Assembly (NCBI GenBank): GCA_964016885.1
Contig: OZ024751.1
Location: forward strand, 15,996,001-16,060,000
Origin: Eledone cirrhosa
Lineage: Eukaryota
Length of the DNA: 64,000 nt
Direction: 5' to 3'
Both the position numbers and the translations under genes were made by a program. The notes below the pieces were generated by a model that had not been told where the DNA came from, made no database searches, and saw nothing but the letters and a program-made list of their open reading frames with translations. This document shows positions 7,668-16,112 of the stretch, piece after piece (position 1 is the stretch's first letter; each line of letters begins with the position of its first letter).

Positions 7668-8215
7668 ATAAATGGAAAAAATGAAATTTCATTTCTCACT
7701 CTTAGTACAGCTGATACTTAAATGTAAGTATGTATACATACATACATATATGTATACAGACGTACAGTAGTATGCATATACATACATGCACATATATATA
7801 TGTACGTATGGGTTTACTGAACATTTATTATAATGCTGGGTTTGTTTGTAAACAAACAGCCCGAATTATTAGCCGTACAGTGTTCGGTAACCATCATTGC
7901 TCTTTTGTTCAACACTGACAAAGGAACGATGAACTAGTTTCTATCTTATTAGCTGTCATCAGCACCATATACCTTCCCATCAGTCGATTGAACGTTTGAA
8001 GGTATATACTTTCCTTATGCATATTAACGGCTGAGCAGCCTAATTTACATATCGAGTGAGTTAGTCGGCCGGGTGTATCGAAAACGATAAATGGAAAAAA
8101 TGAAATTTCATTTCTCACGCTTAGTACGGCTGATACTTAAATATCAGCATATGTATACACTAGTACGTATATACATACATACATGCACACACATATATAT
8201 GTACGTATGGGTTTA
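7668..8215 (-). mobile_element. Family B microsatellite-embedded element, ~420 bp unit plus partial second unit
   Basis: Unit start atAAATGGAAAAAATGAAATTTCATTTCTCAC at 7668 and 8088; homolog at 15562-16112 has the same junction. Confidence 0.75.
7926..7968 (-). ncRNA. Hammerhead ribozyme motif (family B), stem II degenerate
   Basis: ATGGTG-CTGATGA-CAGCTAATAAGATA-GAAA-CTAG-TT-CATCGT. Confidence 0.55.
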
Positions 8216-8221
8216 GTATTT

Positions 8222-8365
8222 AGTACTTCCTTGCTTTCGCAATCTTCAGATTCATATTCAGTGGTAACAGTCAAGTTTGCAATTTTCAACTGTCAAATTT
8301 GCAAACTTGACTGTCACCACTGAATATGAACCTGAAGATTACGAAAGCATGAAAGTACTTGTTCA
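8222..8365. repeat. Fold-back island containing a hammerhead motif
   Basis: 8222-8285 is the reverse complement of ~8296-8360. Confidence 0.85.
8327..8365 (+). ncRNA. Minimal type I hammerhead ribozyme motif
   Basis: TGAAC-CTGAAGA-TTACGAAAGCAT-GAAA-GTAC-TT-GTTCA; the left arm preserves stem II as TTGC(GAAA)GCAA. Confidence 0.65.
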
Positions 8366-8572
8366 ATTAACATTTAACATTTAATATTCTACCATACTAT
8401 TTCATTATAATATTATAATTTTAAAGGATTGTAAATAAAACGAGTAAATCAGACGAAGTTGGAATTCCTTTTATTAATATAATCTTCTATACACAATCAT
8501 ACACACCCGTGTATATATATATATATATATATATATATATATATATATATATATATATATATATATATATAT

Positions 8573-8810
8573 ATAAATGTAATCTGAGTTTTTCGAATAT
8601 TAATAATAACATTCGATTCGTTTGCAATTATGCAAGAAAGCCTCATTTTACACGCCATGTCAGTAGAATGAATCCTTCATTCTTGCTCTTGTGTTGGCAT
8701 GTATGGCATGTATGCCAAGAATGAAGAGTTCATTCTACTGACATGGCGTTAAAAATGAGACTCGTTTGCATAATTGCAAACGAATCGAAAAACTCAGATT
8801 ACATTTATTG
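8573..8810. repeat. Fold-back island flanked by (TA)n
   Basis: 8573-8685 is an imperfect reverse complement of 8717-8810. Confidence 0.85.
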
Positions 8811-9683
8811 TATTCAACCATGTAGAGCGAACATTAAATATATATATATACAATATATTAATAAATGGAAACTATATTTATAAAACCATATTTTATTATA
8901 TATATTTCAAGGGCAACCAAGGCAAATTATGGTGCGCTTTCATCAGATAAAATACAGATTTGTTTTATACATTTTTAAGCTTGTTGAATCCCAACAAATT
9001 AAATATATATATATATATAAATATATATATATATATATATATATATATATATATATATATATATATATATATATATATATATATATATATATAAGGATGC
9101 TAAATTTTGTTCGAGTAAACTATTGAAGTTAACTAAATGAAATATATTTTCATGATTTCATGGAAGCATTCACTAAATAATTCATAAAAAAAAAAAAATT
9201 ATATTTAGAATGTTTAATGTCCTGGGTAAGATTTGATACTTTTCTCTTTATAGAAATAAAAATTTTCGGCGAAGACAGCCGTTATAATATGTATTACTCT
9301 TATGAAATTGGCGTGAATAATATTTAAATCTGTAACGTCTTGGTATCCACATTTCAAAGTGGATTTATGATTTGAGTAATTGCTCTTAAAATATTCTTCA
9401 CATATACAAATATATGATTTATTATATGGTAAACTCTGAAAGCGAGAGAAGTTATTTAATTCATAGATTAAAGAGTCTTGCCTAGATTTGCAATTGAGAA
9501 AGTATTACACACTATGTTTGTCGGGCTATGTTTGAGAGCTTATTTTGTCGATATCCAGAAGGAAACGTTTCGGTTATATTTTTTTAATACCGACATTACG
9601 TATATTTAAACGGCTTTCCAGAGAATAATTTTGTATATATATATGGATGCAGTAAAAACCTGTTTATCTGCTTAGACCATTAC

Positions 9684-10255
9684 TCACCGGAGTACTCGAT
9701 ACTTGGATTAGTAGAGGGTGCAATATGAAGGAGCCGGGCCCCAAATCTTTCATATATATATATATATATGAAAGATTTGGGGCCCGGCTCCTTCATATTA
9801 CCATATTTGTCTCACCATGAGTTGTACTGTCCTAATATATCTGTAAGTATACTTGTGATCTTTGTCTCACCAAGGGATGTACTATCTTATTACATCTGTA
9901 AGTAAACTTGTGATCTTTGTCTTACCAGAGTACTCGATACTTGGATTAGTAGAGGGTGGTAATATGAAGGAACCGGGCCCCAAATCTTTGATATATATAT
10001 GAAAGATTTGGGGCCCGGTTCCTTCATATTACCACCCTCTACTAATCCAAGTATCGAGTACTCTGGTGAGACAAAGATCACAAGTTTACTTACAGATATA
10101 TTAGGACAGTACAACTCATGGTGAGACAAAGATCACAAATTTACTTACAGATGTCATAGGATAGTACACCTCTTGGTGAGAGTAAGATCACAACTTTACT
10201 TACAGATGTATTAAGATAGTACACCTCTCGTGAGACAAATACCACAAGTCTACTT
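9684..10255. repeat. Double fold-back around short (TA)n spacers plus ~52 bp tandem units on both strands
   Basis: GGGCCCCAAATCTTTCA(TA)nTGAAAGATTTGGGGCCC at ~9736-9786 and again at ~9975-10020; TACAGAT..TAGTACA..GTGAGACAAAGATCACAAGTTTACT repeated at 10066-10255 and inverted at 9805-9925. Confidence 0.85.
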
Positions 10256-10281
10256 AAGATTAATATTAATTTCACAAGTTT

Positions 10282-14004: not shown

Positions 14005-14313
14005 TAGAGGTTCTCATATTTTTGGGGCCACCGCTCCCTCACCGCTCCTCACACCTATTTTTAGAGAGAATTGCCTACATGCAAATTGTAAATAATATAC
14101 AATAAATAAAATCATTAATTGATATATGATAAATAATATAATATATACTATGTATAAACAAATATTTTATATTTTCTTTTTTACTCTGCTTATATATAAT
14201 ATGTATCATTTAATATTTAATATACTATTATATCATCTCTACCACTTCCCAGCGCCCTCTGGAACTTCTCAACGCCCCACGGTCGGCGGTAGCACCCACT
14301 TTGAGTACCTCTG
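14005..14313. mobile_element. hAT-type MITE
   Basis: TIRs TAGAGGTTCTCA / TGAGTACCTCTG; 8 bp TSD CACTAGAG vs CGCTAGAG; homolog at 35702-36252. Confidence 0.8.
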
Positions 14314-14419
14314 CGCTAGAGTATATGTTAGCAGAAAAGTGGAAACTAGCATCGTATACAATGCTCAGTCCTTTTCCAGAATATTGAGAACTTCAAGGAA
14401 GGGCATAAAATAAAATGTT

Positions 14420-14648
14420 CTAAACATTTCCTAGCTATTTTGTATATATTCTATTGCGGTGAGTTCCTTCACTTATAGAATTCTCTTCCAGCCTTTTGCA
14501 TTCTTGACCCATTACAATTTTCAAAAGTTCAAAAGCAACATCAATCGTTATTCTCTTTCTCCTTGAATTATGTTCTCTCTGTCTTGTCCTTTTCCCTTCT
14601 CAGTAACAGTTTGCATTTTAGTGGCTTTATTGCTTTGCTTGAAGTGAG
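14420..14648 (+). mobile_element. Degraded LINE 3' end (CR1/L2/Jockey-like); related remnant at ~36320-36435
   Basis: Frameshifted NSLPA..P.....KFKSNINRY and shared 3' UTR tttgcatt..agtggcttt.ttgc.ttg. Confidence 0.5.
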
Positions 14649-14940
14649 GTATATATATATATATATATATATATATATATATATATATATATATATATAT
14701 ATATATATATATATATATATATATATATATATATATGTATATATATATATATATATGTATATATATATATGTATATATATATATGTATATATATGTATAT
14801 ATATATATATGTATATATATATATATATATATATATATATATATATATATATATATATGTATATATATATGTTATATACGTTATATATATACGTTATATA
14901 TATACATATATATATATATATATATATATATGTATATATA

Positions 14941-15360
14941 TAACGAAGGAAATGTGGTAAGGAACCAGGTGGACCATAACGCACGAAAGTACTCAATACT
15001 TGAGGTAGTAGAGTGGGTAATAGGAACCAGTAAGACCCCGACAGCTGAGCTCAAGCCGTTTCGACGGCTAATTCTGGACTAAATGAAAATTTATCCTGGT
15101 ATTTAAATAGCCGATCTTCTCAAGGGGTAATTCCATATATGGTCAAAGTGATTGTCAAAAATCAGTAGTAATTCTGTGGTTGCAAATTAGTAGGGGAGAT
15201 GGTGGCTAAACCTGCCAGTAGGAGAAAGAGGGGAGGGGGTGGAGTAGACCCAATCAAGCGTTGGTAGTGCCAGCTACAGCTGGGCATGAGGTCAAAGAAG
15301 ATACAGGGGAGGGGGAGGGGGAGGAAGTCGGAACGGTAGGTAGAACAATGGGGGGTAGAA
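14941..15360. mobile_element. Family C (TA)n-embedded element (copies 30523-30712, 49022-49100, 51335-51475 inverted, ~57985-58045)
   Basis: taacgaagga..gtggtaaggaacca..tggaccataacgc..agagtactcaatactt, starting at (TA)n in the four copies that include this end. Confidence 0.75.
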
Positions 15361-15561
15361 ATATATATATATATATATATATATATATATATATATATAT
15401 ATATATATATATATATATATGTATATATATATATATATGTATATATATATATATATATATATATATATATATGTATATATATATATATATATATATATAT
15501 ATATATATATATATATATATATATATATATATGTATATATATATATATATGTATATACATA

Positions 15562-16112
15562 TAAGTTGAAAAAAATGAAAACGAAATTTCATTTCTCACT
15601 CTTAGTATGGCACTTACTTAAATGTAAGTATGTATGTATACGTACATACATATATGTATACAGACGTACAGTAGCATGCATATATATATATATATATATA
15701 TATATATATATATATATATATATATATATATATATATATATATATATATATATACACATATGCATACAGGTACACATACATATATGCACGCATCAGTTTA
15801 GTCGACGTTTATTATAACGCCGGCCGCTTTGTTCGTTTGTTTGTCAACAAAGCGAACAGCCTGAATTTATGCCATACGGTGTTAAGGCAACCACGTCACC
15901 TTTTTGTTCAACACTGACACAGGAACGATGTACTAGTTTCAAGCTTGTTAGCTATCATCAGCACCATTTACCCATCTGCCAGATAGTTGAACGTTCGAAA
16001 GTATATACTTTCCTTATGAAAATTAACGGCTGAGCAGCCTAATTTACATATTGAGTGAGTTAAATCGGTCAGGCATACCGAAAACGATAAGTTGAAAAAA
16101 ATGAAAACGAAA
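15562..16112 (-). mobile_element. Family B element copy
   Basis: Homologous to 7668-8215; unit restarts at ~16087 after cgaaaacg. Confidence 0.75.
15925..15967 (-). ncRNA. Minimal type I hammerhead ribozyme
   Basis: ATGGTG-CTGATGA-TAGCT(AACA)AGCTT-GAAA-C(TA)G-TA-CATCGT; intact core, GUA triplet, palindromic stem III. Confidence 0.8.

Follow-up and report, generated by a model that had tools for sequence, protein, structure and literature searches.

Family B, a repeat of which two copies lie in the 64,000-nt window analysed here (Eledone cirrhosa, NCBI GenBank assembly GCA_964016885.1, contig OZ024751.1, positions 15,996,001 to 16,060,000 of the forward strand), is best explained as a high-copy, non-coding tandem element whose units each bear a predicted hammerhead ribozyme, i.e., a retrozyme without long terminal repeats (non-LTR retrozyme), which the protein of a Penelope-like element (PLE), most likely a co-resident PLE with Hydra-clade motifs, probably copies into TA microsatellites. 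We give this reading a probability of about 0.72. The original prediction, made from the letters of the two copies, had proposed a candidate retrozyme family that uses PLE machinery, and both parts are supported, the first by non-coding tandem units with one type I hammerhead each and by long arrays, the second by the tail, inversion and target signatures of the insertions together with mixed insertions of B and a PLE. The retrozyme class is already known; the mixed insertions are the new element of this analysis.

The two window copies (Table 1) are homologous, with 77% identity over 402 alignment columns and 84% of the aligned non-gap positions once the AT run is collapsed, and each passes from the unit start through CGAAAACG back into the unit start, as had been predicted. 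The proposed unit length of about 420 nt fits copy 1 (419 nt), but not copy 2, which reaches 526 nt owing to an expanded internal (AT)n at about 15680-15754. Likewise, the description as two diverged copies is right about the divergence, but not about a single decaying unit, since by their sequences the copies belong to separate subfamilies of a young family: identity to the 40 best relatives is 99% for copy 2 and 94 to 96% for copy 1. Copy 2 has (TA)n on each flank, and copy 1 adjoins (CA)n(TA)n at its 3' end, position 7668. Full B units measure 426 to 577 nt with a median of 504 nt (67 distinct units sampled). The absence of coding capacity also holds, with longest ATG frames of only 58 to 92 amino acids (aa), no frame length common to the subfamilies and no similarity to PLE proteins found in the B unit. 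The tail as an open-reading-frame (ORF) start was rejected, as the frames read from the sequence differ between subfamilies.

In the 3.0-Gb genome, the B core pattern yields 12,708 exact matches and the reversed control pattern none, which excludes chance, and two further unit motifs give 21,098 and 15,945 matches (controls 1 and 0). The first 100 core matches fall into 62 clusters, 40 of them singletons. Among the roughly 120 loci read, out of many thousands, we find at least four subfamilies and the longer tandem arrays that the original prediction had named as a check: head-to-tail arrays reach about 15 units, and inverted arrays comprise 11+6 and 7+7 units. Units within one insertion differ by 0.4 to 0.6%, compared to 1.8% between loci (89 copies, some from other subfamilies). 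In contigs assembled from four sequencing runs of unrecorded kind, one run holds B at high depth, which has no bearing on expression, and no joints were seen in these contigs.

Each unit carries one type I hammerhead; the position predicted for copy 2 and its complete core stand, and the core of copy 1 is complete as well. The predicted cut lies after GUU at 7932/7931 in copy 1, which has one helix II mismatch, and after GUA at 15931/15930 in copy 2. Helix I has 6 bp plus two distal stems, helix II has 4 bp on a U.U base (copy 2) or a C.A base (copy 1), and helix III is a single pair closing a palindromic CUAG loop. Rfam returns a weak HH9 match (E 0.079, below the gathering threshold), so that the hammerhead call rests on the motif and the family alignments. 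The full core is kept in 218 of 238 B ribozyme regions, and for 47 named pairs in 32 diverse units 96% of the cells are paired, above all 500 shuffles. Folded in isolation, the hammerhead region has only a modest advantage over shuffled sequences (z -1.6 and -0.6). Hammerheads of the canonical metazoan type are reported to be active as dimers (PMC4209133; PMC7229834); here and below, statements on published work refer to the parts of the sources covered.

The insertion ends bear PLE-type marks. We mapped 119 arms in 65 segments that cover the motif matches within the initial 38.8 Mb of C1; the motif used for this selection sits immediately downstream of the cut. No fewer than 102 arms end at one of two fixed sites 54 to 61 nt apart, 53 of them with the intervening tail and 49 without, and (TA)4+ abuts 92 of these ends. 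All 38 adjacent opposite arms are joined 5'-to-5', with no convergent pair; 27 of these back-to-back pairs combine a tailed with an untailed arm, one is untailed on both sides, none is tailed on both sides, and 10 include an arm ending elsewhere. The 5' ends are scattered along the unit, and 75 of the 102 arms pass the cut site, where no pile-up of 5' ends is seen (3 of 102 within 4 nt, against 1.7 expected) and indel scars are nearly absent (1 of 228 indel events). The "conserved monomer junction" of the original prediction is thus a fixed site, but it is a fixed insertion end, likely a start site of reverse transcriptase (RT), rather than the point of ribozyme cleavage; along the RNA, the predicted cut is about 370 nt distant from it in copy 2 and about 265 nt in copy 1. 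Where metazoan non-LTR retrozymes have a target-site duplication, it exceeds 4 bp; the B ends lie in (TA)n, which hides any such duplication.

Both autonomous PLE families examined, PLE-A and PLE-P, show the same two-end pattern. PMC8557442 describes the PLE pattern of tail and inversion, which has been attributed to a pair of internal start sites of RT, uncut RNA being the principal substrate in vitro (PMC11167929). Of the traits of a non-autonomous PLE, B has the one-end tail, the inverted 5' arm, the 5' truncation and the AT-rich target, but no 3' sequence similarity to PLE-A or PLE-P. B also adjoins PLE ends across a TA run far above average density (L285, L268, L092, L048, L152, L179); B and PLEs share target hot spots.

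Two insertions are mixed, with B in one part and PLE-P in the other. Locus L192, at about 26.725-26.727 Mb of C1, reads (TA)n, an untailed B end, 1.05 B units, a direct join into PLE-P coding sequence, an inversion, a tailed PLE-P end and (TA)n, and its PLE-P part is 98% identical to a full PLE-P copy. Locus L201, at about 36.251-36.254 Mb of C1, is the reciprocal case, with (TA)n, an untailed PLE-P end, 2.5 kb of its body, a direct join into 1.7 units of B, an inversion, the B tail and (TA)n, and no remainder of B is present beyond PLE-P. As both loci obey the rule of one tailed and one untailed end, their sequences suggest single events. A third, more complex case is L164, where B is joined to a 70%-identical PLE. 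Taken together, the mixed insertions, although small in number, nominate PLE-P as the helper of B. PLE-P encodes an 809-aa open frame with RW, DKT, CxCx5C, CxxC and CxH motifs and no CCHH motif by eye, and has RWI where the Hydra clade has RWK; the features of this clade, including (TA)n insertion, are given in section 11 of PMC8557442. Pfam gave no match for the full proteins of either PLE-A or PLE-P, and GIY-YIG for the PLE fragment in the window. No precedent for mixed insertions was found in the literature searched, with subscription journals and supplements outside the search; the supplements may list retrozymes or Hydra families of this taxon. Two RNA templates in one event are also suggested at L034, where the arms belong to different B subfamilies (92% identical), and copy 1 in the window may form a mixed insertion with a neighbouring element of hammerhead family F.

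From these observations we propose the following course. An array would be transcribed into multi-unit RNA, possibly from an internal U6-like cassette, and, given the weak helix III, pairing of two ribozymes is predicted to be the main setting for cleavage. The PLE protein would nick (TA)n on both strands, and complementary DNA (cDNA) would be initiated at the two fixed sites within the RNA, cross the ribozyme site and, on circles or uncut multimers, run on for 0.2 to more than 6 units. Two cDNAs would then be joined 5'-to-5', and some arrays likely lengthen further in place.

Several points weigh against a PLE-P-driven retrozyme. On the ribozyme side, the core retention is partly built in, as loci were fetched via near-core motifs and some overlap; covariation is thin, with 6 of the 47 pairs changing on both sides; a single pair of helix Ib fails to form in 13 of the 30 rows; and eight of nine tested dimers were uncleaved in Li et al. 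2026 (10.64898/2026.07.22.740005). On the helper side, direct joins are few, occurring at 3 of 13 loci with PLE-P and at none of 18 with PLE-A (122 B loci; Fisher p 0.064), and an insertion nested in another and combined with a deletion, or a misassembly, could also produce them. The placement of PLE-P in the Hydra clade is a motif-based rather than a tree-based assignment. B shows no sequence homology to the ends of PLE-P or PLE-A, and with 54 to 61 nt the B tail resembles the PLE-A tail (60 nt) in length more than the PLE-P tail (95 nt). Finally, contrary to the rule of one tailed and one untailed end, both arms of L034 are tailed, as are both outer ends of copy 1 and its F neighbour.

The copying template leaves room for a further, tentative alternative, the classical retrozyme model, in which an RNA circle of one unit is the obligatory template and arrays arise from it by rolling reverse transcription. 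The crossing of the cut without pile-up and with hardly any indels would fit such a circle, as would the closer similarity of units within an insertion than between loci, and the monomers are predicted to fold stably as circles. However, both arms of L032/L101 follow a strict A-B-A-B order, L050 has these A and B types too, and L039/L100 show a period of 4. Such higher-order patterns call for templates of several units, whether linear or circular, or for subsequent duplication in place. The folding advantage of the circle also shrinks, from a z of about -8 with the microsatellite to -2 to -5 for the linear monomer without it, and the antisense strand folds equally well or better in two of the four subfamilies.

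B units contain a promoter-like cassette as well. In the references of all four subfamilies, TATGCAAATTAG is followed by TATATA 42 nt on and by the ribozyme core 88 nt on. Three U6 types of the host and its MRP gene have TATGCWAATKAG at -76 to -78 with a TATA 46 to 48 nt on, so that the spacing in B is 4 to 6 nt shorter and not host-like. The TATGCWAATKAG box is absent near the start of 12 inspected U1 and U2 genes. The non-coding sister family H retains the box despite about 58% identity to B, at a spacing of 41 nt by eye. We regard the internal U6-like cassette as possibly the promoter of B, a candidate read from the box. RNA polymerase III (Pol III) is a doubtful source of multimer templates, as the T4-T7 runs found at the tail of every B unit would stop it. 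For a U6-type box, the same literature yielded no precedent. In both window copies the box is mutated by a C>T change, and because of this and of the single ribozyme in each, they are likely short, inert daughters; with one ribozyme, neither copy would release a monomer alone. Among the host genes inspected (L211-L239), U6 and MRP have TATGCWAATKAG near -77 and a TATA at -30, and U1 and U2 have AATTAA near -90, TCAGT near -57 and a TATA-like element near -30.

A bolder version would make B a self-promoted retrozyme resembling a short interspersed nuclear element (SINE), with a U6-derived promoter in each unit and no origin as a deleted PLE end, and a dedicated parasite of a Hydra-clade PLE whose protein can prime on both RNAs in one insertion. 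We hold this to be rather doubtful as a whole; if true, it would give the first named enzyme behind an animal retrozyme in the literature searched.

With PLE-P as the nominated helper, it is unlikely that the helper is instead the Neptune-type PLE-A or another, unsampled PLE and that the mixed insertions are accidental. PLE-A has a Neptune-type linker and frames of 1,186 to 1,243 aa; it is young and abundant (36,517 candidates genome-wide), is frequently separated from B by no more than a TA run, and has a tail of B-like length with TAT/CG (the slash marking the junction) at both of its ends, like the B junction. The absence of direct joins at the 18 loci with PLE-A speaks against it, as does an end fold unlike that of B, in addition to the missing homology. 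Structural mimicry of the PLE-A end by B was considered and is unsupported by the fold comparison. PLE-A and PLE-P are the autonomous PLEs compared with B, other PLE families having been seen as fragments.

It is quite improbable that the copies represent an autonomous PLE's truncated ends (pseudo-LTRs) and not an element of their own. The tail, the inversion and the TA targeting are PLE traits, and the loci read are a small part of many thousands. Yet, among the motif contexts listed, the ribozyme is preceded by the tail of the previous unit, by an inversion or by unique flank, and among 43 free ends there is no 5' flank common at one junction. A B profile search over all fetched DNA matched solely family H, and the arrays of about 15 units hold no frame. 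The attachment to RT-coding PLE bodies that the original prediction had named as the contrary case is therefore not what we find, the sampled copies being no pseudo-LTRs of PLEs. Copies lying far apart on the same strand (L162-L167) were considered as pseudo-LTR pairs, and no PLE frame is bounded by them.

That B is an ordinary satellite which DNA recombination has spread, its ribozyme being a passenger, is the least probable alternative and hardly credible, because unequal crossover does not yield dispersed insertions whose 3' ends are fixed, whose 5' ends vary and whose inversions are polar, even though the periodic within-array patterns suggest some local duplication and no A>G strand bias of RNA editing, which would mark an RNA stage, is present (11 versus 14 in B2; 25 versus 23 in B1).

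Several other elements were observed. Sister family H (L184:2880-3430; L240-L259) consists of 466- to 467-nt tandem units with the architecture and box of B, and is of low copy number (18 candidates). Family E (L027:1-1452; L115) has 312-nt tandem hammerhead units without the box and lies directly against B. Hammerhead-like motifs of other families occur in the window at 8946 (minus), 11911 (minus) and 62439 (plus), the first resembling the type at PLE-P ends. The PLE-A insertion in the window (Table 1) has a tailed left arm and an untailed right arm, and a PLE-A-related fragment lies near 17088-17565. A repeat resembling a SINE, roughly 200 nt long and in part arranged in tandem, is found at 7345-7530, 10283-10430, 22821-23375, 34908-35295 and 50077-50764, and also upstream of some U6 genes (L217, L218). 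Other fold-back elements with near-perfect inverted arms lie at 8576-8845, 9690-10060, 6068-6247 and 24203-24318. A triplet array dominated repeat finding in the window, and the Rfam scan of the window gave microsatellite-driven matches only, among the 150 of 281 matches listed.

Table 1. Family B features and neighbouring hammerhead elements in the window (TAT/CG: the slash marks the junction)
Feature	Position	Strand	Details
Copy 1 (subfamily B1)	7668..8215	minus (RNA-sense)	1.3 units, period 419 nt
Copy 1 "tail" between both fixed 3' ends	7668..7721	minus	54 nt; sites set by the ends of relatives
Copy 1 type I hammerhead, extended helix I	7915..7983	minus	core CUGAUGA 7962-7956
Copy 1 promoter-like cassette (candidate)	8002..8052	minus	U6/MRP-type box 8052-8040 (mutated, ATGTAAAT); TATA-like 8009-8002
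Copy 2 (young subfamily B2)	15561..16112	minus (RNA-sense)	1.05 units, period 526 nt
Copy 2 "tail" between both fixed 3' ends	15561..15621	minus	61 nt
Copy 2 type I hammerhead	15914..15982	minus	motif 15925-15967
Copy 2 promoter-like cassette (candidate)	16001..16051	minus	box 16051-16039 (mutated, ATGTAAAT); TATA-like 16008-16001
"Monomer junction", the tailed fixed 3' end	16079..16089 and 8079..8089	minus	TAT/CG in RNA sense
Two-armed element of hammerhead family F	8222..8515		joined without a TA run to the copy 1 5' end
Two-armed PLE-A insertion	29015-30190		GIY-YIG end 29313-29762; own hammerhead near 29978

B resembles the non-LTR retrozymes of metazoans such as coral, mussel and axolotl (PMC7229834; 10.64898/2026.07.22.740005) in its non-coding tandem units, each with a single type I hammerhead, in a GC content under 50% and in co-occurring PLEs, and it shares the weak palindromic helix III and the U.U at the base of helix II with two axolotl ribozymes. 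No LTR, primer-binding site or polypurine tract turned up in B, no search having been aimed at them. With 420 to 580 nt, the units are at or above the reported retrozyme range of 150 to 450 bp, and the RNA circles and cleavage of B are putative. In Xenopus, 24 of 57 families match known transposable elements, nearly all of them PLEs, whereas B is not homologous to the ends of either PLE family examined. The fixed ends, tails, inversions and mixed insertions of B are undescribed in the parts of the retrozyme papers covered, and the words "tail" and "promoter" are absent from the text of Li, Clavereau and Pollet 2026.

These features are instead like those of the endonuclease-containing (EN+) PLEs, which share with B the 5' truncation, the inverted 5' arm, the one-end tail, the two internal start sites and the (TA)n targets (PMC8557442; PMC11167929). 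The head-to-tail copies are like those of non-autonomous Chlamys elements such as MRC1. B differs from EN+ PLEs in having no ORF and a tail of 54 to 61 nt instead of 30 to 40 nt, and from MRC1-type elements in that its 3' sequence does not resemble that of a known autonomous partner (PLE-A and PLE-P tested). Its ribozyme is of the canonical metazoan type, with a 6-bp helix I and a 4-bp helix II, and not the minimal hammerhead of PLEs (PMC4209133).

As a hammerhead tandem repeat with an internal promoter, which in B is a candidate only, the family is also like newt satellite 2 and Schistosoma Sm-alpha, whose promoters are of the small nuclear RNA type and the Pol III type, respectively (PMC2220036; PMC6765202). 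Newt satellite 2 is reported to be transcribed by RNA polymerase II, whereas the candidate box of B matches that of the U6 and MRP genes (Pol III) and not U1 and U2. For animal retrozymes, the literature covered proposes PLEs from co-occurrence and end homology and leaves transcription and the copying enzyme open. To this, B adds mapped start sites, a candidate helper with an intact ORF and a candidate internal promoter, by which both questions become testable with the existing in vitro PLE assay.

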